Of a stretch of 26,910 bases of DNA, positions 8,608 through 26,910 are shown piece by piece. Each line of letters begins with the position of its first letter. Positions within the stretch are counted from its first letter, which is position 1. The position numbers were made by a program, and so were the translations under genes. Below the pieces are notes generated by a model that did not search any database, was not told the DNA's origin, and was given only the letters and a program-made list of their open reading frames with translations. Origin of the DNA: Patellaria atrata CBS 101060 (taxonomy: Eukaryota); the NCBI GenBank assembly GCA_010093705.1, contig MU006090.1, positions 2,286,022 through 2,312,931 on the forward strand, read 5' to 3'.

Positions 8608-8649
8608 CCGGCGGTAGGACCAATACTCCAACAGCTCCACCATCTAACA
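8608..8649 (+). repeat. Terminal fragment of a second short-LTR variant
   Basis: CGGTAGGACCAATACTCCAACAGCTCCACCATCTAACA is nearly identical to the reverse complement of 14582-14619. Confidence 0.7.
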
Positions 8650-9126
8650 GAACTAGATAAGTCTAGAAACGCGCCTGGCTTCTCACTTAACGTGGTCAAC
8701 CACTAGGGTAGGTTTTGCAAAGTGATAGGATACGTATAACAAAGGCACTTCAAGTTGACGATACAACTTGCTGACTCCTTGACTTCGGGTAATGCTCAAA
8801 ATGAGACAAGACGTACTGTATGGAAACAGCGTAACAAGTGAAGTCAAGTTCAAAACCGTAACATCCAAATCTATGGGTAAGATTGATGGTAAGAATAACT
8901 ATGAAGAATCTAAATACATGAGGGAAAGACCGTCCTTAAATATTCCTCTTCCTTCGTGGTTCAATTTGGTGGTCGTTTGGTCGCATGGTCGTCTCCTACG
9001 ACCGAACGTCCAAACGTCCATGTTACGTGACCCTGCTCACTTGAGTCACCCGCAGTTTCCCCGAGTGGTCCCTCTTTCTTCCCCTCACTCGATAACTGCA
9101 TGTCCTTACAACTTGTGGCCGTAACA
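8650..9126 (-). mobile_element. Solo LTR of the Ty3/gypsy family (U3 type A), missing ~30 nt of its 3' end
   Basis: The reverse complement starts TGTTACGGCCACAAGTTGTAAG, like the LTR at 23152. R-U5 is nearly identical to the other copies. The 3' end is replaced by the short-LTR terminus. Confidence 0.92.
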
Positions 9127-9348: not shown

Positions 9349-11516
9349 ATGCGACTTCTTCACTTTCATCATTCTGGAGGACTAATCTTGACGGACTTCG
9401 GCAGGAAGAGCATTCCGCCATATGCTATTCTTTCAATAGATGGCGAGATGACGAGGTTTTCTTCGAAGATCTAGGAAGCGACACCTATAAAGAGAAGGGT
9501 GGTTTTCAAAAGATTGAGTTCTGCGCTAAACAGGCGGCCCAGGATCAGCTACAGTACTTCTGGGTCGACACATGTTGCATTGATAAATGAAACCTCCGTG
9601 AGCGCTCGAAAGCGATTAACTCGATGTTTCATTGGTATAGAAATGCAACAAAATGCTACGTATACCTATCGGATGTCTCGGTATCTACTACGAAGGAGAT
9701 ACCCCAACAAAGTACCTGGGAGGCATCCTTCCGGAAAAGCGAATGGTTTACTCGAGGCTGGACACTTCAAGAACTTATTGCTCCAGTATCAGTCGAGTTC
9801 TTTTCCAATGAAGGACGGCGGATAGGCGATAAAATATCTCTTAAACAGCTGGTATGTGATATTACTAGCGTTCCACTTAAAGCGATATCGGGTTGTCCCT
9901 TAGACGAATTCACTATATCCGAGCGAATGGAATGGGCCAAAAATCGCAAAACAACTGAAAAAGAAGATAATATATACTGCCTTCTTGGAATTCTCGATAT
10001 CTCCATGCAAACCTCCTATGGCGAAGGAAAGGAGAAAGCATTGAGAAGACTCCAGATAGAAGTGGAAGCAGCTACTAGCGCACCATCTATCATTCCATTT
10101 TCCCGAAACGATCATTTCGTGGGTCGAGAGTCACAGCTTGCGGAACTGGAAGCAAATCTCCTCAGAGACAAGCAAGCTACAATATTAGCGATAGTAGGAC
10201 CCGAAGGAGTAGGTAAATCACAGTTAGCACTCGAGCTTGCGTATAAAATAAGAGAAACAAATAAGAATTACTCCATTTTCTGGATTGATGCAAGCGATAT
10301 AGATCGTCTCTATCAATCGTACGTAAGTATTGCCCAAAAGCTCGATATTCCTGGCTGGGACGATGAGAATGCAGACATTAAGCAGTTGGTGAAATTTCAA
10401 CTAAGTAGAAAGGGTGCAAGGCAGTGTTTACTAATTTTTGATAACACGGAGGATATAATCCTAGGGTCCAGCGGGTTCTCCACGGCACGAGCTACAAACT
10501 TAATAGACTACCTCCCACGGTCGGAACTATGTTCTATCATCTTCATAACAATTAACAGTGACACAGCCAAGAATTTATCACCGCTAAATGTTGTAGAGCT
10601 AAGGGAAATGACACTAGATACTGCCTAAAGGATGTTAGAAAACTATTTAAATACTCCGGTTTCAAGAAGTGAGCAGCAGGAGGCGAAATTATTACTATAA
10701 GAGCTATTATATCTCCCCCTAGGAATTGTCCAAGCAGCAGCCTATATTAATACTAGAAATACCACGTTACAGGAATACCGATCACAATTAGTCAAGCGAA
10801 AGAAAGAAGCTCTCGAGCGTGATAGCGAATTGTCTAAGGACAAGCTACAAGAGTACGGTATCAAAAGTTCTATAGCTACCACACTACTTATCTCCATGGA
10901 CCAGATCCGCCGTAGCGATACGCTAGCAGCAGACTACCTTTTTCTTGCCACCTGCGTAGACCGAAAAGAAATCCCGCTGGGTTTTCTAGAAGCATCGTTG
11001 CCTCGTGAAAGGGAAGATGTAATAAAAGTTCTCAGTAGCTACGCGCTTATTATAAGGCGGCCTGCTGAATCCGCACTCGATCTTCATCAACTGGTGCATC
11101 GCACTCTACGGGAGTGGCTTCGAAAGCAGGAGAAGCTAGACCAATGGACCCGAAATGCTATCAAACAGCTACTCAGGGTGTTCCCAGACCTTAATCATGG
11201 TAATAGAAGTAAGTGGAGACGATTACTTCCGCATGTTAAATACGCTTTATCACATAGTCTCGTTGAACAAGAGATCGGGAATAGATCAACCTTGGCATGG
11301 AAGTATGCTATAACGCTATATAGTGATGGACGGTACAACGAGTCTGAAGAGTTATTGTGCAAGCAATGGCGATGAGGAAGAGGGTGCTTGGGGAGGAGCA
11401 TCCAGACACGCTGACCAGCATGGCCAACCTGGCGTCGACATACAGGAATCAGGGGCGGTGGAAGGAAGCTGAAAAGCTGGACGTGGAAGTGATGGAGACG
11501 AGGAAGAGGGTGCTTG
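9349..11516 (+). pseudogene. NLR-like HET + NB-ARC + TPR gene, disrupted and 3'-truncated
   Basis: ATG at 9349 gives MRLL..PPYAILS(H)RW with a 1-nt deletion near 9436. Other motifs: FWVDTCCIDK followed by TGA at 9588, AINSMFHWY, WFTRGWTLQELIAP, P-loop GPEGVGKS and LLIFDN. TAA stops at 10626 and 10698. After a frameshift near 11355 there is a TPR (VLGEEHPDTLTSMANLASTYRNQGRWKEAEKL), and homology ends near 11516. Confidence 0.92.
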
Positions 11517-12089: not shown

Positions 12090-12478
12090 ACATGCATCTT
12101 TTCAGCTACCGCAGCAATCCGACATGCTTTGACCCTTCCCGCAATCTCGGCACGATATTTCCAGAAAGTAAATAAGAGAATCTACTGTACTCTCTTTCGC
12201 AGGGCCCTCCAACGGATGGCCCCCAGCCAGTCCCGACTGGCACGACTTGGCAACCAAAACCCAGACGACAACTGTAGCTGAACAGTGCTTCGCCCTGCAG
12301 CAGAGAGCTCACAACAGCCCCATAACCAGGGCATATTTGGTCCTCACCTGTATACTTATACAAAGAGGTCGATTAGCAATATCATTTTTGGGCCTCATTC
12401 TGTCAAAGTCCGATTGTCTAGCGTCATCTCCACCTTTTTCAAGCTCCTTACAACAGATTTTCGAAAGCGAGCACAGTC

Positions 12479-14440
12479 ATGGAGCAATTTTCTTATGCCT
12501 CTGCACCGCTTTCTGCTGAAGAGATTCGACTCTTCTCCATTCTTCCCAGCTCAAATCCTGAATTACCAGAACGCCTGGACATCGAGTTGACCAAGGCTGC
12601 CATCAACGATCTGCCAGATTTCTATGCGATTTCATATCTCTGGGGTCGTCCCAACAGCAGCTCCCAAGACCCACAGAACATTTTCGTAGACAACAAGTTT
12701 CTAAGCGTGACGAGGAGCATCCAGGAAGTGCTACTAGCTCTCCGAACGCCCGAAAAGCTCTGGTTTTGGGCCGACCAGATATGCATCAACCAAAAGGATG
12801 ACAAGGAAAAGGATTTACAGCTCCCTTATATGGCTACGATATATGGGAAGTCTACTCGCACTATTGCGTGGCTTGGCGCGGAGACTCGGAACTCAGCAGC
12901 TGCTATGGCATTCCTTAGTAAACTTGCCTGCAAAGGGTCTAAACTGGGCATTACACATGTGGATCATGAGCAGCTTCGCAAACTCTTCACTGATGAAGAC
13001 GACGATTTCGGGACGGTGAATGCCATGGATACTGATTCCGCCACTCGCAGGACTGAAGTTCACAGTTTTGTTTCTGAGATGGGGAACATTCTGCATCTGT
13101 CCGATCTCGACGCTGTTCTAGAGTTTTGTGCTCTGCCATACTTCACCAGAGGATGGGTCAGAGAAGAGATTGCACTGCCCAAAAATCTGCTTTTGAGATG
13201 GGGCAACCAGTTCATCGACGGCGACACTTTGGCCGATGCGATCCACCTCCTAAAACTCTATGTTCATCACTCCATTGGCAGACTGAGGAAGAGTCCAATA
13301 GACTCAGAGACCGCAATAACCATCCAATTGATAGAAGATAGGACCTCACCATTGTATGACTCAATCCAACCTACTGCTGTAGCCCGGCGCCAATACCAGA
13401 TGAATCCAGCGGTGCGATTTTTTAATATGGCATACATCCTGAGAAATTACCGACACCTAGAGTTCACTAATCCGCGCGATCGAGTGCATGGCGTTCTGGG
13501 ATTGGCGAACGATTGGAGAGACCTCGGGATTCCAATTCGATCCTCAAAATCCGTGCCTGATGAGGTTGTGTTGACACAGACGGCGAAGAAAATCATTCAG
13601 AAAAGGGTTGAAGACGATGACAACTGGGGAGGGATCAACTTCATGTTGCTTTGCGGAGACTTTCCTCCCATGACCGCTGAGTCGAAGTCGAACAGACTTC
13701 CGTCTTGGGTACCCCGACTTGAACGACAAGATCCCTTTACTTTATCAGACGAGACGACATTTGTTTCGTCACACCCTTTTAACGCCTCTAGGGGCTTTCG
13801 TCATCCAATCACGAAGGAGGAACAAGATGACGCTGATCCAAATATTTTCCTCTGCAGCATTATGGTGGTGGACAGCGTGAAGAACACCGGCAAACCAGAG
13901 GCGGATCTACGAGACGCTCTGGTAGCTATTTGGAACTTTGCTGGTGAATCAGATGTCATAGTTAAGTCTGATCCAGAATCGAAGCATCCATATTGCAAAC
14001 CTACGGCCCAGGAGAAGTTGTTAACCGCTAGATGGCGCGTGCCTATTCTGGATCACGAATTCTTGAGCAATCCAACATCATTACGGCGGGCCACGACCTT
14101 GAGTAGAGAAGGATTCTGTGCACTATGGGGAATGAAGGGTGCAGATGCAATCCAAAACAGCAAAATCAAGGCGGAAAACTATGAAGAATCATGCCATCCG
14201 CTAAGGTCCAGAGTCCCTTTCCTTGGGGAAAAGGGGTTCGTTGGCATCGGACCACGCAATGTACAAAAAGGAGATTTGGTTTGCGTAATCCTGGGAGGAC
14301 GTTTTCCCTTTATTTTGCGCAGAAGATCTGCTCCGGAGTTAGCACGCTACGAATTGGTCGGAGAGGCTTATTGTGATGGAATTATGGACGGAGAGGCTTT
14401 TCACATGGGTATCGCGACTCGAACAGTTGAATTGATATGA
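12479..14440 (+). CDS. HET-domain protein, HET-6-like architecture, 653 aa, intact and intronless
   Basis: Motifs IRL, YAISYLWG, WADQICINQKD..EK..Q...M..IY, YFTRGWVREE, NPRDRVHGVLGL, LPSWVP, and a C-terminal GIGP...KGDLVCVILGG..PFILR...YELVGEAYCDGIMDGE. Confidence 0.92.
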   Translation: MEQFSYASAPLSAEEIRLFSILPSSNPELPERLDIELTKAAINDLPDFYAISYLWGRPNSSSQDPQNIFVDNKFLSVTRSIQEVLLALRTPEKLWFWADQICINQKDDKEKDLQLPYMATIYGKSTRTIAWLGAETRNSAAAMAFLSKLACKGSKLGITHVDHEQLRKLFTDEDDDFGTVNAMDTDSATRRTEVHSFVSEMGNILHLSDLDAVLEFCALPYFTRGWVREEIALPKNLLLRWGNQFIDGDTLADAIHLLKLYVHHSIGRLRKSPIDSETAITIQLIEDRTSPLYDSIQPTAVARRQYQMNPAVRFFNMAYILRNYRHLEFTNPRDRVHGVLGLANDWRDLGIPIRSSKSVPDEVVLTQTAKKIIQKRVEDDDNWGGINFMLLCGDFPPMTAESKSNRLPSWVPRLERQDPFTLSDETTFVSSHPFNASRGFRHPITKEEQDDADPNIFLCSIMVVDSVKNTGKPEADLRDALVAIWNFAGESDVIVKSDPESKHPYCKPTAQEKLLTARWRVPILDHEFLSNPTSLRRATTLSREGFCALWGMKGADAIQNSKIKAENYEESCHPLRSRVPFLGEKGFVGIGPRNVQKGDLVCVILGGRFPFILRRRSAPELARYELVGEAYCDGIMDGEAFHMGIATRTVELI

Positions 14441-15836: not shown

Positions 15837-16117
15837 TGTCAAGGCTCAACCTCAGATGGAAGCTGAAAGGTATATTGCTATATATACATGAAGCTTAAAC
15901 TTAAGGAAAGAAAGTAAAAGAGAGTATCAGAACAGCGTGAGCTGTTCTATTAAAGTACAACATGACTAAGCTACTGGATCATGCATGGAGCTTAAACTTA
16001 AGGAAAGAATATAAGAGAAAGTGCCAGAACAGCGTAAGTTTGTTCTATTAAAGTATAGCATAGCTAAGCCGCTGGATCATCCAAGGCACTTATACCTATC
16101 GGGTCTAACCCGTGACA
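15837..16117. mobile_element. Putative solo LTR (TGTCA...TGACA) with an internal ~97-bp tandem duplication
   Basis: 5-bp inverted termini, with diverged units starting at 15887 and 15984 (CATGRAGCTTAAACTTAAGGAAAGAA...CTGGATCAT). The flanks differ (CGAGG vs ACAGT) and belong to unrelated elements. Confidence 0.55.
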
Positions 16118-16341
16118 ACAGTGATCTGGACGAAGAAGTCTACTGCAGATATCCGGACGGATTCTACAAGCAGGGACTTGTTATGAAGCTTCACAAAGCT
16201 TCGTACGGACTGAAGAGATCACCTCGGCTCTGGTATCAGTTGTTTCCAACGGCTTTAGAAGAGCTGGGGATGATGCCGGTTCCTAGTGTCAATTGCTTGT
16301 TTACTGATGGTACCATATTAGTGCTTTTCTACGTGAACGAC
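16118..16341 (+). mobile_element. Ty1/copia reverse transcriptase fragment
   Basis: SDLDEEVYCRYPDGF..KLHKASYGLKRSPRLWY..LFYVND (YVDD motif), cut off by the gypsy LTR. Confidence 0.9.
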
Positions 16342-16901
16342 TGTTACGGCCACAGGACAGAAGGACAGCATCACCAGTAGAACGGTAGCACAAGGTGCCG
16401 GAACGGAACAACTAACGCGGAGGTCACGTGACGTGATCAATGGTCAACGGTGCTCGAAGGGTATTGAGCATAGAGCAGACTCGAGCAAACGTGATCGATG
16501 GTCAACGGTGCTCGAAGGGTATTGAGCATAGAGCNNNNNNNNNNNNNNNNNNNNNNNNNNNNNNNNNNNNNNNNNNNNNNNNNNNNNNNNNNNNNNNNNN
16601 NNNNNNNNNNNNNNNNNNNNNNNNNNNNNNNNNNAATCTTACCTATAGATTTGGATGTTACGGTTTTGAACTTGACTTCATTTGTCACGCTGTTTCCATA
16701 CAGTACGTCTTGTCTCATTGTGAGCATTACCCGAAGTCAAGGAGTCAGCAAGTTGTATCGACAACTTGAAGTGCCTTTATTATACGTATCCTATCACTTT
16801 GCCAAACCTACCTTGGTGGTTGACCACGTTAAGTGAGAAGCCAGGCGCGTTTCTAGACTTATCCAGCTCCGTCTTGATAAGTATAGACTCCCGTTGTAAC
16901 A
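16342..16901 (+). repeat. 5' LTR (U3 type B), spanning the N gap 16535-16634
   Basis: Starts TGTTACGGCCACAGG and ends CCCGTTGTAACA. 16635-16901 is nearly identical to 23411-23677. A 58-bp tandem duplication starts at 16431 and 16489. Confidence 0.85.
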
Positions 16902-16903
16902 TT

Positions 16904-16911
16904 ATAACTAC
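16904..16911 (+). promoter_or_regulatory. Putative self-priming PBS (Tf1/sushi type)
   Basis: There is no TGG-type tRNA PBS. ATAACTAC is complementary to GTAGTTAT in the LTR (23393-23400 in the 3' copy), about 40 nt downstream of a TATTTRAG element. Confidence 0.55.
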
Positions 16912-16947
16912 CACGCAGTAGGAAAGCGTATAACAGACCTAGACACG

Positions 16948-18990
16948 ATGTCGTCAGCCGCAGCCAACACGAAGACGGATAAAGAACATATCCAAGCGTT
17001 GTACAAACGCATCAGCGAACTCGAAAATGAAGGGACAGTCCAAGAACTTAGGGATCAGCTCGAACAACTTACCGTACAGTTGCTCTCACCATAGAAGCGA
17101 ACCGCGAAAGTCAAAGAACCCGCACCATACGATGGCAAACGAGACGAGCTAAGAGGATTCTTAACCCAGGTGAGGATCTATCATAAGAGAATAGGGCTAA
17201 CGGACGACAGTGAACGTGTACTCGATGCATCAGCGTACCTTAAAGGAGACGCTTTGGAATGGTTCGAACCCATTGCACGAGACTATCTTGAGAACAGTGA
17301 AGAACACCAGGAAGACGAAACAGTTAAGATCTTCAAGTCGTTTCCAAAATTCGAAGAAACGCTCAAGAACGTCTTTGGGGAAGTCGACGAACAACAGGCA
17401 GCTGAAAGGAAGCTTCAAGGACTCAGACAGAAGGGGTCAGCTTCGAAGTATGCAACTACATTCCAACAGGCAGCATCAACATTGGGTTGGCCTGATGAAC
17501 CACTGATGATCGCTTTCTATCAAGGTTTGAAGGAAGAAGTAAAGGACGAGTGGGTTCATTATGAGAGACCAACGACCATGCAGGACGCAGTGACCTTAGC
17601 AGTTAGAATAGATAACAGGTTATATGAGCGTAGACAGGAAAAGGGAGGACGGAAGAATGTTGTGGTTGGGTATAGAAAGAAGGCAACAAGGGCCACGAGT
17701 AGACAAGATCAGGGAGACCCAATGGACCTCGACCGACTACAACAGACAAAACAAAAGAAGTCGAAGAAACAACGACAGTTCACCCAAGAAGAAAAAGAAC
17801 GCTTTGCGAACAGGGCATGTCTACAATGCGGAGAAGTGGGACATTTCAAGAGAGACTGTCCACAGAAGACGCAACCACCCTCGCGACACAACCGACGTAT
17901 GCAACTCAGAGTCATGCACCTGACACCACCGTCACCAGTCTCATCGCTAGAAGAGGAAGAGATCGAAGAAACGCCGCTACCCTACCAGACGGGGGTGAGC
18001 AGGCCACCGACGCCGTTCCCAACAGCAGGAAACTGGCTAGAGGAGGAGACACTCCGACAACGTTTAGACAACCAACAATGTTGGGCGTGTGGAAACTTAT
18101 GTACGCACACAGCATCAGAATGCCCAGCACAGAATCAAGGTCAGAGGATTAGAGTACAAACATCTAACGGACCAAGCCTCACATACCGGATTATGGAACA
18201 ACAACGTTAGCTTGAACAAGAATTCCAAGACTGGGAGCCAATTGAACCCGAATCCGATGCCGATGTGATCGTCGAAGAACAACAATTGAACCTTGCACCA
18301 AGGGCAAAAGACTGCTTAGCCTTTCGATGGATGCAATGTAAAGAGGATGACTGCTTATACCATAAACAGCAGAAGGCCACAGCAAAGTTTAGGGACCGAG
18401 ACCCCACATACGTACACTTACCTGAAAGCCAATGCCAGGTAAAAGGGTGCAAAACCCACGAAGACGAAACAAAAGTACTCGAGAAGAACCAAGGACTCGA
18501 GCCACCAGCAGGCGACTGCGGAAAATATGACAGTTTCAATTGCATAGACAAACTTAGGTGCAGACGACATTACTGGACACTAATCCATACGGGATGCGTA
18601 GCAGCAACGTGGGAAGATTGCGAACATGGCACGGATTGCTGGTACCATAGAGGATTAGAGGAAGAGTTCTATAAAACAAAAGTGTTTCCGTGGGAAACGG
18701 AAGTGCTCAGAAACGGTGGAGAGACCACCGAGCAAGCCACTAAATGCGACGCGACAGACTTTGGACAGTGCGCGATTAGAGGAATGTGGTGCGATTACCA
18801 CACCGCGCAGAGATGGAGAGCAGGAATCAAAAGCAATCCAAGTCACAACGCAGTTATCAAACGAGAATGTCGAGAATCGGAGTGCGAAGAACATCGCAAA
18901 GGTCCATACTATGACCGACATGACAAACTACACTGGACCGTGTGCGTAGAATCCGGTTGCCCGGTACACGGCTATGCAAAAAACTACTAA
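16948..18990 (+). pseudogene. gag: gag with a CCHC knuckle and a long Cys/His-rich C-terminal extension; in-frame TAG stops at 17092 and 18208
   Basis: Single frame from ATG 16948, containing KEPAPYDGKR, YLKGDALEWF, FYQGLKEEVKD, GDPMDLD and CLQCGEVGHFKRDC. Confidence 0.88.
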
Positions 18991-19036
18991 GCCACTCGAG
19001 ACAGGAACGATCGAGAAGTATAGCTCCTAAGTTCCT
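18978..19036 (+). promoter_or_regulatory. -1 ribosomal frameshift signal (A AAA AAC) with a candidate pseudoknot
   Basis: The heptamer is in the gag frame, just before the gag stop, and pol lies in the -1 frame. Candidate stems are CTCGA/TCGAG and AGGAAC/GTTCCT. Confidence 0.75.
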
Positions 19037-22000
19037 TAGAACCCTACGAAGCAACGATAGAACGCTTTGGGTAGATGTCACCGTACACGGCAAGAGAACG
19101 ATAGCGCTAGTCGATAGCGGCGCCACCGATTCGTTCATCTCACCCCGATGGGTAGAGAAGAAGAGTATACCTTACACGAAACTTGAGAACCCAGTCCCGT
19201 TGCGACTAGGAAACGGCGAAGGCATAGGCTATGGACGAGGTCTGATCAACTTTAGGACCATACCGGTAGAAGTCGACGTACAAGGCAAGGTAGTTACTTA
19301 ACGCATCCCCATAACCGACCTTGGAGATGTAGATGTGATTCTAGGGATGGACTGGTTACAAATAGTGAACCCAGATATTGACTGGAAGACAAGAAGTATC
19401 CAGATTGACCAAGACACCTCACGAAAGGATAGAGTCAAGCGAACGAAACGTACTAGGCAGACGGACGCTAGTATACCCGTAGGACGTATTTCGCACTGCA
19501 AGATGATGAAGATCTGCAGAAACAAACCCAAGAGCGTAGGAGCAGTATGGCTCAGGAAAGTAAACGCCGAGAAGGTTTCCGAAGAACCCAAGATACCCGA
19601 AGAGTATAACGAGTTCAAAGAATTGTTTGAGGAAGATATAGCGACTATGCTTCCAGATCACCAGACGTGGGATCATGAAATAGTGCTAAAGGAGGGTGCG
19701 AAACTACGACCCGGCCCAATTTACCCGTTGACAAGAGAACAACATAAAGCACTCGAAGAATATATCCGCACCAACTTAGAAAAGGGATATATACGACCTA
19801 GCGAAAGCCCGATGGCTTCACCGATTCTATTNNNNNNNNNNNNNNNNNNNNNNNNNNNNNNNNNNNNNNNNNNNNNNNNNNNNNNNNNNNNNNNNNNNNN
19901 NNNNNNNNNNNNNNNNNNNNNNNNNNNNNNNNNNNNNNNNNNNNNNNNNNNNNNNNNNNNNNNNNNNNNNNNNNNNNNNNNNNNNNNNNNNNNNNNNNNN
20001 NNNNNNNNNNNNNNNNNNNNNAAGGCGAAGAATGGAAGACAGCCATGAGAACGAGGTTCGGACTGTACGAATACACAGTAATGCCGTTCGGCTTGACCAA
20101 CGCCCCAGCAACGTTCCAAGCAGTGATCAATCATGCACTGAGAGAATATTTGGACGTATTTGTAACTGCTTACCTAGATGATGTGCTAGTGTACACGAAC
20201 GGAACGCTCGAAGAGCACAGGGAGCATGTAAAGAAAGTATTGACGAAACTACGAGAAAAGAGACTCCTAGTACACCCAGACAAGTGTGAATTCCATATTA
20301 AAGAAACGGAATTCCTAGGCTTCATCGTTACCACTGAAGGAGTACAAGCAGACCCAAAAAAGATAGAAACAGTAGTGGAATGGCCCACACCAAGAAGTGT
20401 GAAGGATATACAATCATTCCTAGGTTTCGCGAACTACTATAGGAAGTTCATATAGGGGTACTCAAAGGTAACATCGCCACTATCAGAACTAACAAAGAAG
20501 GACAATACCTTTGTTTGGATAGAGAAGGCGCAAGAAGCATTCGACGAACTCAAGAAAAGGTTCACCACAGCACCAATCTTGGTCACGTTTGACCCGGAGA
20601 AAGAGATTGTACTCGAAACTGACGCATCAGACTATGCACTGGGCGCATGCATCAGTCAACCAGACGAGAAAGGACGGTTACACCCCGTTGCCTTCCATTC
20701 ACGGAAGTTCACAGCCGCAGAGCTGAACTACGACGTATACGACAAAGAACTATTAGCAATTGTCGACGCATTTGAACAGTGGAGGTCATATTTAGAAGGA
20801 CCCAAGTACACTGTAAAGGTTTGGTCAGACCACCAGAACCTAACCAGTTTTCTCACCACAAAGAAACTAAATCGAAGACAAGTAAGATGGGCGGAGACGC
20901 TCGCATCTTATAACTTCAAGGTATTCCATAGACCAGGAGTCGAGAACAAACTAGCCGACGCTATAAGCAGAAGATCCGACTACTTAGAAGGAACTAAGCC
21001 GGTACACGACGCAGTACTAAAGAGAGAAAACGACGCGATCACTTATAACCAGCCAAGATTAGCCGCTATGTTAATCATTGAATCCACGAGGGAACAACAG
21101 ATTCGTGATGCCTATCAGAAGGATAGTATGATAGAGGAATTTCAAAAGGGTAACGACCCCAGAGCGACGAAAACAGCTCACGGAACATGGTTATACGACG
21201 GACTCGTATACGTACCAACAACACTGCGAAAGACTCTTACCAAAGAGATCCACGAAGCACCAGCACATGGTCATCAAGGCATTGACAAAACCTTGGAAAG
21301 GATCTTAAGAAATTACTATTTCCCAGGGGTAAGGAGTACAGTAAAGCAAGTCATCTTAGAGTGCAATGACTGTGCACGGAACAAGAGTGCAAGACACGCA
21401 CCTTATAGACAGATGCAACATATTGAGCCACCAAAGCGAGCATGGGACTCAATCACGATGGACTTCATCACCGGTCTACCAGGATCCACAGACCCAGCAA
21501 CAGGAGTAGAGTATGATTCGATACTAGTAATCGCTAAACGACTAACAAAGTTCACCTACTTCATACCAGCAAAGACGACGATGACAGCACCACAAGTAGC
21601 AGCACTGATATCAAAAGTAGTGCTAGCCAATCACCAAATGCCTAGAGAAATCATTTCGGACCGAGACAAGCTATTCACATCAGCATTTTGGCAAACTCTA
21701 GTACAAAGTTTAGGGGTAAACCATAAGCTATCGACAAGCTTTCACCCATAAACGGATGGCCAGACTGAGAGAATGAACCAATCTCTAGAGCAATACTTAC
21801 GCAACTATGTGAATTACCAGCAGAACAACTGGGTAGAGCTGCTACCAATGGCACAATTCGCACATAATAGCGCGAAATCCGATACTACGAAGGTTTCACC
21901 CTTCTATGCGAATTACGGTTTCGAACCAGAAGCATATCGTGAGCCAAGAACAGTTTAGAGCATTTCACAAAAAGCAGCGTTGAAAGTCGAGCAAATCAAG

Positions 22001-22439
22001 GAATTGCACGCACAGCTATCTCGAGACATAGCTTTCCAGACGACAAAGGCTGCAAAGTATAGCAATCAGCATAGGTCGCTGGAACCGACCTTTAAAAAGG
22101 GGGACAAAGTTTACTTGTTACAAAAAAACCTCAAAACAAAACGACCCAACAAGAAACTAGACCACAAGAAAATTGGACCTTTCAAAGTCAAACAGGTCAA
22201 AGGAAAAGTCAATTACGAGTTGGAACTACCTAAAGGAATGAGGATACACCCAGTTTTCCATGTATCACTCCTAGAACCAGCACATGCTAACGCTAAACTC
22301 CAAACACGACCCACAGAACTCGAAGAAGAAGACGTCTACGAGGTAGAACGTGTTCTAGACCTACAACAGGTAGACGGTCAGTGGAAGTACTTAGTAAAAT
22401 GGAAGGGCTACGGACACGCAGACAACACGTGGGAACCAC

Positions 22440-23036
22440 TCAAACACTTTGCGAACCACCATCAGGGCCTTGAACAGTTTCATCGACGAAACCAGGGAAT
22501 TCCAGACCCTCGAGGGCAGAGAAATCCAAATCAGACCAGCCAGGAGGAGAAGCGACAGAGGAAGAGGCGACCGAAGAAGCTTGCTGCTTTCCGGCTCCTC
22601 GCTCCAAAGCCTCAAGCTCCTCAATGGAACCAAGCTCACGACGAGACATCTCGACCTCCTTATCCTCAAGGGAACGGAGCTGTCGACGAAGGCGACGGGC
22701 GCGGGCACGAGCAGTCCTCACTTGAGCGCTCGCCTCAGCACGAACTCGCTCCTCGTGATCCAGAGCAAGCTCTTCATCGTGCTCAGCAGCAGCTAACTCA
22801 GAACGAGTCCTGGCCTTTAAAACATCGAGTTTATCCCAATCCTTTTGTGTCACCACGAGATCGCACTTCGTACCACGGGCAAGACATTCAGAACAGAAAC
22901 CTGAAGGGATATCGACAATACAAGAACGAGAAGAACGACGACAAGCAGAACAAGGAGTCGGCATGGGACGACCGTGTAGAGCAACACGGGCAGCGTAGCG
23001 TCGACGACGGACTGGACGAGGTTCAGCTTTTGGCAT
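22440..23036 (-). CDS. Antisense ORF of the retrotransposon: 198-aa Zn(II)2Cys6-type protein with a coiled-coil-like segment and an acidic C-terminus (putative transcription regulator)
   Basis: ATG at 23036 and a basic RRRRY segment. CSACRRSSRSCIVDIPSGFCSECLARGTKC fits C-x2-C-x6-C-x8-C-x2-C-x6-C (22863-22952). An E/R/A/L-rich helical region follows, then the tail WSDLDFSALEGLEFPGFVDE. There are no internal stops. Confidence 0.8.
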   Translation of the reverse strand: MPKAEPRPVRRRRYAARVALHGRPMPTPCSACRRSSRSCIVDIPSGFCSECLARGTKCDLVVTQKDWDKLDVLKARTRSELAAAEHDEELALDHEERVRAEASAQVRTARARARRLRRQLRSLEDKEVEMSRRELGSIEELEALERGAGKQQASSVASSSVASPPGWSDLDFSALEGLEFPGFVDETVQGPDGGSQSV

Positions 23037-23039
23037 CTC

Positions 23040-23098
23040 GAAAGAAAGGGAAGAGAGGTGCGTACGACTTGACAGATGGGCGACACGTCTATTATATA
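23040..23098 (-). promoter_or_regulatory. Putative core promoter of the antisense ORF (TATA plus CT-rich tract)
   Basis: Minus-strand TATATAAT at 23091-23098, then CCTCTCTTCCCTTTCTTTC (23040-23058) just before the ATG. Confidence 0.55.
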
Positions 23099-23130
23099 CC
23101 CAAGCAAAAGAAACAAACTCTTGGGACAAG

Positions 23131-23151
23131 AGTTGAGAAGGGGGAGGATAG
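23131..23151 (+). other. Polypurine tract
   Basis: AGTTGAGAAGGGGGAGGATAG directly abuts the 3' LTR. Confidence 0.85.
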
Positions 23152-23677
23152 TGTTACGGCCACAAGTTGTAAGAACATGCAGACAACGAGTGAGGGGAAG
23201 GAAGGAACACCACTCGGGGGAACTGCGGGTGAAACGAGTGATAGAGAATCACGTGACCAGACAGTGGTCGCCGGTCGCGCTGGTCGCTGTGAACGACCAA
23301 CGACCAAAACGACCAGAGTATAAGCAACCAAATTGACTATGGAGGATAGGAATATTTGAGGACGGTCTTTCCCTCATGTATTTAGATTCTTCGTAGTTAT
23401 TCTTACCATCAATCTTACCTATAGATTTGGATGTTACGGTTTTGAACTTGACTTCGTTTGTCACGCTGTTTCCATACAGTACGTCTTGTCTCATTGTGAG
23501 CATTACCCGAAGTCAAGGAGTCAGCAAGTTGTATCGACAACTTGAAGTGCCTTTGTTATACGTATCCTATCACTTTGCCAAACCTACCTTTGTGGTTGAC
23601 CACGTTAAGTGAGAAGCCAGGCGCGTTTCTAGACTTATCCAGTTCTGTCTCGATAAGTATAGACTCCCGTTGTAACA
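23152..23677 (+). repeat. 3' LTR, 526 bp (U3 type A)
   Basis: TGTTAC...GTAACA termini, preceded by the PPT and gap-free. Confidence 0.95.
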
Positions 23678-24345
23678 CCATACTTCAACAACTTCCAAAA
23701 TAGTTTGGATCTTTATTGATAGCCAAGCAGCAATCAAAAGACTCCAGAAGAACTGCCTTGAAGGAGGACAAGAATTGGTTACACTGATAAGCAATCAGTA
23801 TGATATCCTGACAACAGAATGGGGCATGAATGTCAATTTCAGCTGGGTTCCAAGCCACAGAGGTATCTTTAGCAATGAGCTGGCAGACAAACTGGCCAAA
23901 CTTGGACTGGCAAGGAAATCTGTATAAGCATCATTCACCTCACTAAGCCACCTCAAATGTATAAGCAGAGAAAAGATCATAACAGGTTGGAAAAGGGAAT
24001 GGGAAATAAATCCTAAAAGACAGGGGAAGCACTACACCCAAGTTTGCAGAGCAGCAACCTCATTCTCTACCAAATCATCGATGCCAAAATATCCAAAAAG
24101 GACTCAAGCAGCATTCTTTCAACTAAAGAGTGGAGCAGGCTTCTTCAAATCATACTCCAAGAGAATTGGAATGGATATTAAAGGGAAATGTTTTGGAGAC
24201 TGCAAGTTTATCCAGAGCCCAAGGCACCTAGTTCTTCACTGCAAACATTACTCCAAGGAACACAAAATCATGGAGAAGCAGCTAAAGTCAAGAATGACAT
24301 TAACAAAGCTCTTTTGTACAGAGAAGGGGAAAGAATTACTCTTCC
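23678..24345 (+). mobile_element. Tad1-like LINE fragment 1: C-terminal RNase H and zinc knuckle
   Basis: WIFIDSQAAIKRL..FSWVPSHRGIFSNELADKLAK, then FQLKSGAGFF and CFGDC..PRHLVLHC. Contains stops; the right junction is approximate. Confidence 0.85.
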
Positions 24346-26910
24346 TACGCTGGAACAGCAAGACTGGATAGACAAGATGGAAAATCTAGCAGTAGACCTT
24401 ACACATTGCATCACAGCTGCAGCAAACAAAGCCATACCAAAAGCTAGGATCTGCGAATACTCTAAGCCATGGTGGAATAAAGACATACTTGATAAGAGAA
24501 AGAGGATGACCCAACTAAGAAGAAGGATCAAGACCTGTCATTTAAGGATACAGGAACAGCAGAATTATGCATTTAAAGCTGCAAGAAATGAGTACTTCCA
24601 CACCATCAGAAAGGCAAAAACTGATCACTGGAACAGCTTTCTTGAGAATGCTAGAGGGAAGGAAGTATTCACCGCACTGAAATACACTAAGGACAAGACA
24701 CTGCGAAATATTCCTACACTACAGTACTCCAGCAATGGTATACTGATACAAGCAGAAAACTTTGAAGACAAATGCACAGCTCTCACCACCACCTTATTCC
24801 CCAAGCCACCAAGCACAGCAGCCTGCCAATGGGAAAGCTACTCACAGGACCCAAGATGGGACTGGCCACAACTGGAGAGTATAGAAGTGGAGGCAGCAGT
24901 TAACTCAAGCTCACACAGGAAAACCCCAGGAGATCAGCTCTCGTTCGCCATTATCCAGAAGCGTACCCAATAAACTCAGACATTTTCAATAGGTTATATA
25001 AGCTTCTATTTCAAGTTGGCTATCATCCCAGGATATGGAGGGAGGCGGTAGGAGTTGTGTTACCAAAGCCTAATAAAGAAGACTACTCCATGCCAAAGTC
25101 ATATAGGATTATTTCCTTACTCAACTGTTTAGGCAAGACTTTGGAAAAGATCATGGCAACAAGACTAGGATATCTAGCAAACACAACACACCTACTTCAG
25201 CACTCACAGATGGGAGGAAGGCAATAACGCTCTGTTATTGATGCAACGCTCTTACTACTAGAGTATATCCAAAGACAGAAGGCTGGCAAGTCAGGAAGTA
25301 GGAAGGTTGCCTCAACATTACTATTAGATATGAAAGGAGCTTTTGATCATGTATCAAAGAATCAACTACTGTCCACCTGCAAGCAACTAGGACTCCCATA
25401 TAGCCTCTGCCAATGGATCTCATGCTTCTTAACTAATAGAAAGATGCAGCTACAGGAACAGCCAGAAAGTTGAAAGATATCAAACGTTGCAGAACAAAGC
25501 ACTGAGGATGATCTTGGGTGCCTTCAAGACTTCCCTAAGCATGGCCATGGAGATTGAAGCAGGCCTGCCTCCTCCAGCTGTCAGATTTGAGAAGCTGTGC
25601 AACTCTTATGCCCTTAGGGCTTTGAAGTTCCACAAAACCCATCCGGTCAAGAGAGTGCTCTGGGAAGAGCTTGAAAGAGATAACTTAGATGCATCCTTAG
25701 ACTCTGACTCAGAAACAGGCAGTACTTCAATCAAGTATATCGCTAGACCAAACACTCAGCTCCTATCCTTATTGAAGAGAACCTAGGAGTTTATCACCAA
25801 CTGGAAGGTAGAAAAGATTTCTGTACATAATGCTCAACCTTGGAGGCCAAAGTTAAAGGCATCATTCATCATCTCCAGCAAGGATAAAGAAAAAGCATCG
25901 AAGCAACATGATAAATTAATTAGAGACCTAGAGTCAGGTATGAAGGACGGACTGGTCAATGTTTACTACACTGATGGGTCTAAAGGGCAACAGAAATGCT
26001 GCAGGGGCATGCCAGATAGGAAATAATCAGCGCATTTTGTTTGCCAGTAACTGGAACTTAGGAGATAGCGTTGAGATTATGGATGTAGAGCTATTTGCCA
26101 TTCTTAAAGCACTTGAAAGAGAAAAGTGTTACAACGGGAGTCTATACTTATCGAGACAGAACAGGATAAGTCTAGAAACGCGCCTGGCTTCTCACTTANN
26201 NNNNNNNNNNNNNNNNNNNNNNNNNNNNNNNNNNNNNNNNNNNNNNNNNNNNNNNNNNNNNNNNNNNNNNNNNNNNNNNNNNNNNNNNNNNNNNNNNNNN
26301 NNNNNNNNNNNNNNNNNNNNNNNNNNNNNNNNNNNNNNNNNNNNNNNNNNNNNNNNNNNNNNNNNNNNNNNNNNNNNNNNNNNNNNNNNNNNNNNNNNNN
26401 NNNNNNNNNNNNNACCGTAACATCCAAATCTATGGGTAAGATTGATGGTAAGAATAACTACGAAGAATCTAAATACATGAGGGGAAGACCGTCCTTAAAT
26501 ATTCCTATCCTTCGTAGTTCAATTTGGTGGTGTTCGCCCTGCTCACTTTGCTCGCCCCTCGAGCACGTCGAGCACATCGATCACATCACGTGATCTCCTA
26601 CCCGTGATGGTTGTTCCGTTCCGACACTTCTGCGCTACCGCTCTATGGGTAATGCCGCTTCTTCGTCCTGTGGCCGTAACAAAAAGACCCAGTGTGAGAA
26701 GGGACAATCCATTGCCAAAACCCTGTGGGTTTTTGTGGACAGCCAGGCGGCACTTAAGAGGCTACAAAAGAACAGCCTTGATGGAGGACAAGAATTAAGT
26801 GTGCTGATAACTGACCTATGCAATACTCTCACTAATGAATGGGAAATGAAAATTACCTTTAGCTGGGTTCCTGGCCATAAGAACATCTTTGGGAATGATA
26901 TAGCAGATAA
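24346..26910 (+). mobile_element. Tad1-like LINE fragment 2: partial RT with a central deletion, plus RNase H, interrupted by a solo LTR
   Basis: SKPWWN, LPKPNKEDYSMPKSYRIISLLNCLGKTLEK and LDMKGAFDHV. After about 25452 it jumps to QNKALRMILGAFKT, so the YADD region is missing. Then YTDGS, ELFAILKAL, VDSQAAL and WVPGH..GND.AD. Contains frameshifts and a TAA at 25225. Confidence 0.9.
26127..26681 (-). mobile_element. Solo LTR of the gypsy family (U3 type B) with 5-bp TSD AAAAG; spans the N gap 26199-26413
   Basis: Both LTR termini are intact. AAAAG lies at 26122-26126 and 26682-26686. Removing the LTR and one TSD restores the RNase H frame (ALEREK-TQCEKGQSIAKTLWVFVDSQ). Confidence 0.92.

Follow-up and report, generated by a model that had tools for sequence, protein, structure and literature searches.

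We analysed a window of 26,910 nucleotides (nt) from Patellaria atrata CBS 101060 (GenBank assembly GCA_010093705.1, contig MU006090.1, positions 2,286,022 to 2,312,931 of the forward strand); positions below are those of the window unless a contig is named. On its + strand, at about 16635-23682, the window carries a Ty3/gypsy chromovirus, identified from a pair of long terminal repeats (LTRs) and from the order of the Pfam domains. Gag, protease, reverse transcriptase (RT), RNase H, integrase and a C-terminal chromodomain were found between the LTRs, which is the composition that defines a chromovirus. Downstream of pol, still inside the LTR pair and on the opposite strand, lies an open reading frame (ORF) of 198 codons, running from ATG to stop as an earlier note on this DNA had claimed. 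That note proposed that the ORF is a gene of the element itself and encodes a Gal4-type Zn2Cys6 protein. The data described below indicate that it is very probably a genuine conserved gene, carried by a lineage of ascomycete Ty3/gypsy chromoviruses.

The antisense gene, its family and its position

The ORF was said to fill the space between the chromodomain and the polypurine tract (PPT). The location was borne out, as the Chromo match ends at 22489 and the 3′ LTR begins at 23411 or earlier, but the ORF is not confined to the spacer. The final 50 nt of the ORF (22440-22489) and the end of the Chromo match overlap tail to tail, and the last 16 codons of the acidic/aromatic tail double as chromodomain-coding sequence on the other strand. 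The absence of stops in this ORF had also been set against six stops in gag/pol. Both counts are correct, but they carry no evidential weight: at the gag-pol stop rate, 0.69 stops are expected in 597 nt (P(0)=0.50), and the intactness of the window copy is therefore uninformative. The deposited gene model of the genome starts at M25. Because relatives share an upstream N-terminus of the form MPK...RR.RLA, the ATG at 23036 is the likelier start.

A word-indexed search returned, besides the deposited model of the window gene itself, six paralogues with identities of 51-73%, all of them named proteins of Patellaria atrata CBS 101060, which gives at least seven gene copies in one named genome; one metagenome protein was found at 39% identity. 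When 1.84 billion cluster representatives were searched with a profile, 561 matched at E<=1e-3 and 151 at E<=1e-10. The proteins of this family are small, and the profile match commonly starts near residue 25-30. Motifs were counted in the 149 representatives among the matches listed that lie outside the window's own set. Their median length was 186 amino acids (aa), and 122 of them contained the six-cysteine pattern (CX2CX6CX5-12CX2CX6-8C), with the exact 2/6/8/2/6 spacing in 82-84; the other 27 are mostly N-terminally short models or have one cysteine replaced. The family alignment shows a common MPK... N-terminus followed by an Arg-rich helix, a Trp soon after the sixth cysteine, a RELASIEELE-type motif late in the long helix and a Ser/Gly-rich C-terminus. 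All named members belong to Dothideomycetes, namely Patellaria atrata, Zopfia rhizophila and Paraphaeosphaeria minitans, and the neighbours in the ESM Atlas are clusters of Ascomycota proteins labelled 'hypothetical protein', with 140, 122 and 62 members. A scan of viral contigs gave 341 pattern matches and no relative of the antisense protein.

The genomic context of relatives was obtained from one metagenome scan with a 6-sequence alignment, which yielded four short contigs (L001-L004). Each encodes a relative at 43-49% identity, antisense to retroelement genes. We observed SH3_Tf2-1 and/or Chromo directly 3′ of the antisense gene, on the opposite strand, in three of the four loci: SH3_Tf2-1 (2.3e-9) with a partial Chromo match (24.0 bits, slightly below threshold) in L001, Chromo (3.5e-16) in L002, and SH3_Tf2-1 with Chromo (6.5e-19) in L003. 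The fourth contig, L004, stops before the point where a chromodomain would lie; its sequence is nearly the same as that of L003, and gag with a CCHC knuckle is encoded farther on in the pol strand. As these two contigs represent one lineage, the context covers three extra lineages and the window. The earlier note had asked whether homologues consistently keep this antisense position, and they do so wherever the contig is long enough. On one strand of L004 (1-2537), the pol tail is followed by about 500 nt of LTR-like sequence and then by gag with the CCHC knuckle; this contig represents either two tandem elements with one LTR in common or a repeat that was assembled in circular form.

Table 1. 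Coordinates of the antisense gene, of the features around it and of the host element in the window
Feature	Positions	Strand	Basis or remark
Antisense accessory gene, 198 aa	22440..23036	-	ATG-to-stop ORF
Six-Cys Zn2Cys6-like cluster, residues 29-58	22863..22952	-	Pfam Zn_clus; six-Cys pattern
Long helix, residues 64-156	22569..22847	-	AlphaFold2, predicted local distance difference test (pLDDT) 92-98; predicted homodimer interface
Acidic/aromatic low-confidence tail, residues 157-198	22443..22568	-	pLDDT 60-78; direct sequence reading
Putative core promoter	23041..23098	-	TATATAA 23098->23092; CT tract 23058->23041; direct reading
Five exact TGGTCG motifs	23265..23315	two +, three -	229-279 nt upstream of the antisense ATG
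Stop-free pol-frame extension	22490..23323	+	spans the whole antisense gene and 285 nt past its ATG
5′ LTR, visible part	16635..16906	+	direct repeat with 23411-23682; start lost in a 100-N gap, 16535-16634
gag (capsid and CCHC knuckle)	17095..18210	+	ends at TAG 18208
pol (protease, RT, RNase H, integrase, SH3, chromodomain)	18211..22489	+	Pfam; broken reading frame
Chromodomain	22337..22489	+	Pfam Chromo, residues 127-177 of the frame starting at 21959
3′ LTR, part repeated at the 5′ end	23411..23682	+	true start may be upstream; common sequence ends at about 23677

Coding on both strands

Selection was measured on one close pair, L003 and L004, which align without gaps. In the reading frame of the antisense gene (the Zn frame), differences amounted to 1/162, 3/161 and 13/161 at codon positions 1, 2 and 3, respectively, and to 7/49 within a putative intron; 13 of the 17 coding differences thus fall at the third position (P=3.4e-4). 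The NG86 ratio of nonsynonymous to synonymous substitution (dN/dS) came to 0.126 for the antisense frame, as against 1.03 for the sense frame of the same DNA. The comparison of both frames that the earlier note had suggested therefore points to purifying selection in the antisense frame. A similar difference was seen at larger distances. Zn proteins from the window, L001 and L003 are identical to one another at 79-82 of 165-178 aligned residues (z 30-37 against shuffles), whereas the sense-strand tails agree at only 35-49 of 170-185 (z -1.3 to 7.9). The conserved product is therefore the antisense protein. Coding in the sense frame as the source of this conservation was rejected on the codon-position pattern, the dN/dS values and the tail identities.

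The putative intron, of canonical form, spans 49 nt of L003 (472-520) and has the antisense orientation (GTTCGT...CTAAC...TAG). L004 has GTCCGT...CTGAC...TAG at the same site, and the motif CTAAC (CTGAC) lies 8 nt before the intron end. Once the 49 nt are excised, the frame is continuous again, the 181-aa product is intact and the conserved Trp codon of the family is re-formed across the junction. The window copy and L001 are without the intron. In P0037, a protein of another lineage, an insert of 16 residues (about residues 66-81) stands exactly at the L003/L004 intron site; it may well be an unspliced intron read by the gene caller, a slight hint that a third lineage shares the position. The intron could be removed from an antisense transcript only, and we therefore infer expression of the gene from integrated DNA under a promoter of its own. 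On the genomic RNA, the intron would not be a splice substrate and would pass through retrotransposition unspliced.

Candidate promoter elements lie upstream of the antisense ATG, where both the TATA and the CT tract were read at the sites claimed for them. The TATATAA is 56-62 nt upstream of the ATG, and CT-rich stretches also precede the ATG in L001, L003 and L004. Further upstream is the group of five TGGTCG motifs (Table 1), for which the Poisson probability of at least five in 51 nt is ∼7e-11, a figure calculated post hoc. A decayed copy of this TGGTCG(C) array is present at 8970-9020, in a partial element. L003 (14-113) and L004 (1704-1835) have about eight TGCGATCAC/GTGATCGCA motifs in both orientations at a similar distance from the ATG. 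Across the window, L003 and L004, the arrays lie 160-300 nt upstream of the antisense ATG and share the core TGRTCGC. They may be regulatory or binding sites, a lead that was noticed post hoc.

The strand opposite the antisense gene is itself open in the frame of pol. In the window, the stop-to-stop sense frame 21959..23323 extends over the entire antisense ORF, and the sense frame is likewise free of stops opposite the Zn ORF in L001, in L003 and, as far as the contig reaches, in L004. Beyond the antisense ATG, it ends after 285 nt in the window, after ∼3 nt in L001 and after ∼59 nt in both L003 and L004. Thus, three lineages have no pol-frame stop over the antisense gene, against 4-7 expected. 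The expectation was obtained from two kinds of shuffle, one keeping the Zn codons and permuting their order and the other keeping the Zn protein and permuting synonymous codons. In the window, these gave means of 7.28 and 5.94 stops, and none of 3000 shuffles was free of stops; stop-free shuffles made up 1/3000 and 4/3000 for L001, and 0.27% and 0.33% for L003. As exon 1 and exon 2 of L003 stand in different relative codon phase owing to the intron, the effect in L003 is not bound to one phase. The other two opposite-strand frames contain 4+4 (window), 5+1 and 5+6 stops, as expected. Five T|A codon junctions occur in the window, none of them stop-making, since none comes after an nTT, nCT or nTC codon, though 66 of the 199 codons are of these kinds. 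A general avoidance of TpA was rejected as the cause of the open sense frame on the basis of these five junctions and of the stops in the other frames.

Judged from these sequences, the sense tail is kept open, yet it is not conserved as a protein. Translation of the genomic RNA would have to run almost to the PPT. An open frame could spare the genomic RNA a 3′ untranslated region of ∼0.9 kb, or it could supply a disordered tail to pol.

The predicted protein and its possible roles

The cysteines of the antisense protein are spaced C29-X2-C32-X6-C39-X8-C48-X2-C51-X6-C58, which is the exact binuclear-cluster pattern (CX2CX6CX8CX2CX6C) that had been attributed to it. AlphaFold2 was run on a 32-sequence alignment and returned a metal-free model with a mean pLDDT of 89.1, comprising a helix at residues 7-21, cluster helices at 30-34 and 49-54, the long helix at 64-156 and a low-confidence tail. 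The long helix and the acidic/aromatic tail, the latter by direct reading, agree with what had been described before. In a Foldseek search of 350,542 chains, ranks 1-10 were all Zn2Cys6 domains, as were most of the rows listed. The best rows were Pho7, Put3, Gal4, Hap1, Leu3, Ppr1, AlcR, the Cep3-containing CBF3 and LAC9; the fit to LAC9 had a root-mean-square deviation of 1.9 Å over 32 columns and a template modelling (TM) score of 0.69 by target.

A homodimer was predicted with an ipSAE of 0.54, the best control giving 0.00. The mark used was reached by 21 of 30 proteins solved as one-chain pairs and by none of 23 solved as single chains, and the runs agreed in at least 54% of the contacts with a partner pLDDT of at least 71. 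This pass supports pairing of the chains but is no proof of it. The best contacts sum to ∼197 (116 with 81, 113 with 84 and 123 with 74), and residues 23-46 of one chain touch the far end of the helix of the other chain. From these sums, the helices would therefore be antiparallel, with the two clusters at opposite ends of a rod.

Gal4-type Zn2Cys6 factors resemble the window protein in having the same cysteine pattern, with a dimerising helical element and an acidic tail behind it. The window protein differs from them in being encoded by a mobile element and in having no Fungal_trans middle domain. Gal4, Put3 and Ppr1 dimerise by short parallel coiled coils, whereas the window protein has a helix of about 90 residues for which antiparallel pairing is predicted. 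Another comparison is offered by HBZ of human T-cell leukaemia virus type 1 (HTLV-1), an antisense-encoded basic leucine zipper (bZIP) factor whose function has been shown experimentally. Both would be retroelement proteins made from an antisense transcript, with a nucleic-acid-binding module and a dimerising helix, but the analogy is one of layout only. HBZ has an unrelated bZIP fold, belongs to an animal retrovirus and is expressed from a promoter in the 3′ LTR; an antisense promoter of the HTLV 3′ LTR is mentioned in PMC7264820.

The closest published counterpart is found in fungi. Boty-like retrotransposons of Botrytis cinerea with an additional antisense gene, brtn, were described by Zhao et al. 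2011 (Virology 417:248), as related in passages of PMC8365987, PMC7264820, PMC4227169 and PMC5987419. According to the passages of the first three of these, brtn lies between pol and the 3′ LTR, the Boty pol has a chromodomain, and the gene is also present in Sclerotinia; a Monilinia transcript is stated to have matched truncated Pol together with BRTN. The earlier note knew of no described case in fungal chromoviruses, and on these accounts that statement has to be given up. Like the window gene, brtn is, so described, antisense, located between pol and the 3′ LTR, and part of a chromodomain-bearing ascomycete gypsy element. It recurs in related elements of two species, and the Monilinia Pol/BRTN transcript fits an overlap with the 3′ end of pol such as that in the window. 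The hosts differ, being Dothideomycetes for the window family and Leotiomycetes for Boty. We estimate that homology between the window family and BRTN has about an even chance, or a slightly better one.

Antisense genes between pol and the 3′ LTR (aORF-3R) have been described in plant gypsy elements as well as in Boty, the plant examples in the passages of PMC7264820 being Grande gene23, RIRE2, Retand ORF4 and PvRetro13 ORF2. For Grande gene23, the same source reports that an own promoter was shown and that the product is nuclear. As presented there, the plant genes share the place and the orientation of the window gene and are conserved within families, but they belong to non-chromovirus lineages with long 3′ internal regions, have no sequence relation to the window family, and none is reported with a zinc-cluster domain. 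The window gene, unlike these, is packed into ∼0.9 kb and overlaps both the chromodomain and the extended pol frame. According to PMC7264820, a review of 2020, clear database similarity had not been described for any aORF-3R protein, and their function is unknown; the published description of brtn thus apparently includes neither a Zn2Cys6-like cluster nor a coiled-coil dimer, an intron or an open pol frame. A full-text literature search, with most subscription journals outside its range, found no paper in which an antisense gene of an LTR retrotransposon is tied to a zinc cluster or binuclear cluster. There is no mention of brtn in the supplements of PMC8365987, and the text of Muszewska 2011 (PMC3248453) contains neither 'antisense' nor 'Boty'.

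The earlier proposal of an element-encoded gene is upheld by the large family, the conserved cysteines, the recurrent antisense position, the purifying selection and the upstream TATA and CT tract. Taken as a whole, the data are likely to be best explained by a third gene that lies opposite a pol frame kept open; among the possible functions of its product, that of a dimeric nucleic-acid-binding regulator is the one we favour. RNA polymerase II would transcribe integrated copies from the internal promoter (the TATA and CT tract in the window), as the layout suggests, while the genomic RNA of the element would be unable to encode the antisense protein. The product, of about 180-200 aa, would consist of a basic N-terminal helix, a divergent Zn2Cys6-type cluster, a helix of ∼90 residues predicted to pair two chains antiparallel, and the acidic/aromatic tail. 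Such a nuclear dimer may act in trans on the copies of its own element, its targets being perhaps sense or antisense transcription, or copy number, and may work through short repeated motifs upstream of the gene or in the LTR. About 600 nt are open on both strands, as the pol frame stays stop-free over the antisense gene. That the protein is specifically a transcriptional regulator of its own element is possible, though we hold it with less than even confidence.

Several observations weigh against this reading. The positional context consists of four short contigs only, two of them from one lineage. L002 is decayed, having a frameshift and a stop in the Zn gene and a broken sense frame too; some paralogues are also decayed (P0007, for example, has Tyr for the first cysteine), and the window copy, located in a dead element with six gag-pol stops, may be a relic. 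The overlap confounds the sense-frame dN/dS of 1.03, and this value is therefore no proof of a tail without function. Among transcript records, no run on record as RNA contains the stretch, and promoter, splicing and translation are all predictions from the DNA.

Other such observations concern the Gal4-type assignment. Pfam Zn_clus (PF00172) matches residues 27-61 marginally (E=2.1e-4 and 21.7 bits, the gathering score being 21.0) and reaches E<=0.01 in just 4 of 32 aligned relatives; the suggested check with this hidden Markov model thus gave a borderline match for the window protein and no match at this level for most of the aligned relatives. A profile compared with PDB sequences gave LAC9 at E 0.33 and PUT3 at E 0.69, and in the Foldseek search against the PDB no row reached E<=1e-3, all having E of at least 0.33. 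The loop between the second and third cysteines (C2-C3) is strongly basic in Gal4-type clusters, where Lys17, Lys18 and Lys20 of Gal4 contact DNA. In 115 six-residue loops, we observed Lys or Arg at the six positions in 42, 61, 30, 13, 47 and 25 cases; the Gal4-type Lys position is basic in 13 of the 115, and at none of the six is a basic residue conserved. It is therefore doubtful that the protein binds specific DNA sequences in the manner of Gal4. The antiparallel arrangement of the model, with clusters at opposite ends of the rod, points in the same direction. Of the Gal4-type design that had been proposed, the order of cluster, predicted dimerisation helix and acidic tail stood, the Zn_clus score was borderline, and the C2-C3 loop and the predicted orientation of the dimer did not bear it out. 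The gene is not the first antisense accessory gene in fungi, and the proposed role as a Gal4-like transactivator is partly at odds with the sequence.

These points leave room for a different function, which we nevertheless consider unlikely: the protein might be a cofactor of retrotransposition, in which two antiparallel chains form a rod that carries a zinc module at either end and links two partners. These might be the two ends of the cDNA, the preintegration complex with chromatin, or integrase/chromodomain with a host factor, and help in nuclear import is possible. The predicted antiparallel dimer, with residues 23-46 in contact with the far helix end, would suit such a bridge, and so would the lack of conserved Gal4-type DNA-contact residues and the physical coupling of the gene to the chromodomain end of pol; preintegration-complex and nuclear roles have been raised for plant antisense ORF products in the passages of PMC7264820. 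However, an acidic/aromatic tail together with a zinc cluster is at least equally typical of transcription factors, and a product of antisense mRNA is not co-translated with Gag-Pol, which makes a stoichiometric particle component less natural.

It is improbable that the protein is a counter-defence factor blunting heterochromatin, RNA silencing or mutation of the repeat-induced point mutation (RIP) type. Long retention in spite of the cost of antisense RNA speaks indirectly for it, a double-stranded RNA risk being noted in the passages of PMC7264820, and TpA/ApT is 0.45 in the antisense-gene region (22440-23036) against 1.02 in gag-pol (17095-22439). This contrast may merely reflect stop avoidance on two strands, which explains the low TpA equally well; moreover, no similarity to a known silencing suppressor was found, and the gag-pol of the window copy has still been hit by six TAA/TAG stops.

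A working antisense RNA that pairs or interferes with the sense transcript, the ORF being incidental, is very improbable. Antisense non-coding transcripts regulate other retroelements, according to the passages of PMC7264820, but a dN/dS of 0.126, together with the clustering of changes in the intron and at third positions of codons, speaks for a protein, as do the six cysteines, the Trp and the helix motif conserved in the family of 561 representatives and a fold predicted with high confidence. Finally, the one-off capture of a host Zn2Cys6 gene fragment, which the earlier note had named as a possible refutation, or a chance ORF opposite an open pol tail, can be dismissed almost entirely: the intactness of the window copy is uninformative, the opposite strand is itself open and ESM-type searches can be misled by opposite frames, but the same gene is in the same place in elements whose proteins are 43-49% identical, selection acts on the antisense frame and not on the pol tail frame, and the closest named genome has at least seven copies.

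We return to the dimeric regulator encoded by a third gene. In its fullest form, which we regard as rather doubtful, this reading would describe an old and widespread ascomycete lineage of three-gene chromoviruses, in which a dimeric zinc-cluster protein binds short repeated motifs near the 3′ end of its own element and sets transcription or copy number, and in which ∼600 nt are selected to be translatable on two strands. If true, no earlier case of a fungal retrotransposon encoding a sequence-specific regulator would be known, and HBZ would have a counterpart in fungi. Regulation of the element by its own protein, if real, would show that simple retrotransposons, and not only complex retroviruses, evolve trans-acting regulators. 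The zinc-cluster nature, the size of the family, the antiparallel dimer model and the open two-strand overlap may be new. The system also offers handles absent from the plant cases, namely a recognisable zinc-cluster module, a confidently predicted dimer, and hosts amenable to culture and transformation. The pol frame, stop-free across the antisense gene, would be a clean natural case of a two-strand overlap under selection, and it bears on the way in which retroelement RNAs cope with their long 3′ regions. Hundreds of fungal proteins annotated as 'Zn(2)-C6 fungal-type domain' or 'hypothetical' are probably transposon genes, by which counts of transcription factors would be inflated.

The host element and its surroundings

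The domains of the host element were assigned by Pfam. In gag, we found Retrotrans_gag (1.7e-11), Ty3_capsid (3.5e-9) and zf-CCHC (3.5e-5); pol has RVP_2/gag-asp_proteas, RVT_1 (4.4e-23), RT_RNaseH (4.1e-38), Integrase_H2C2 (5.1e-18) and rve, followed at its 3′ end by SH3_Tf2-1 (4.4e-18) and Chromo (2.7e-14). Six premature in-frame stops interrupt gag-pol, at 18208, 18988, 19299, 20453, 21749 and 21956, and the frame changes at least once; an assembly gap of 190 N falls inside RT (19832-20021). The window element is a dead, imperfectly assembled copy. All six premature stops are TAA or TAG, which fits CpA-to-TpA (RIP-type) mutation.

The two LTR copies are 97-98% identical over 267-272 nt (97% as a direct repeat and 97.8% over 267 nt by blastn). 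Because the 5′ LTR is interrupted by a run of N, the exact LTR ends and the positions of the primer binding site and the PPT are approximate. Both LTR copies contain a perfect 8+4+8 palindrome, CAAGTTGT-ATCG-ACAACTTG, at 23525-23544 in the 3′ copy. The same element family has left two more fragments in the window, both on the minus strand (8647-9126 and 26126-26528), each made of LTR and adjoining upstream internal sequence. The first (85.6% identity) ends at the equivalent of 23152, before reaching the antisense gene, and the second is broken by a run of N (26199-26413).

Depth over 16000-24500 was taken from contigs of runs X1 and X2, which come from one sample, are probably DNA and are silent on expression. 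Summed contig depth over the LTR (23384-23667) was a few hundred-fold that of single contigs (about 260-560), and over internal parts of the element it was from few-fold to about twenty-fold. Several contig joints jump from near 16117-16731 to 23327-23726. The depth pattern therefore indicates a multi-copy element family with, in all likelihood, many solo LTRs.

The element has ordinary genes of fungi as neighbours, encoding Nup120, an esterase, a STAND NTPase, a HET-domain protein and an OrsD-like protein, along with further repeat fragments. An ORF for a STAND/NB-ARC-type NTPase (9591-10628) and a HET-domain ORF (12422-14440) lie between two copies of the element, and the retrotransposons are therefore situated in a region of NLR-like and heterokaryon-incompatibility-type genes.

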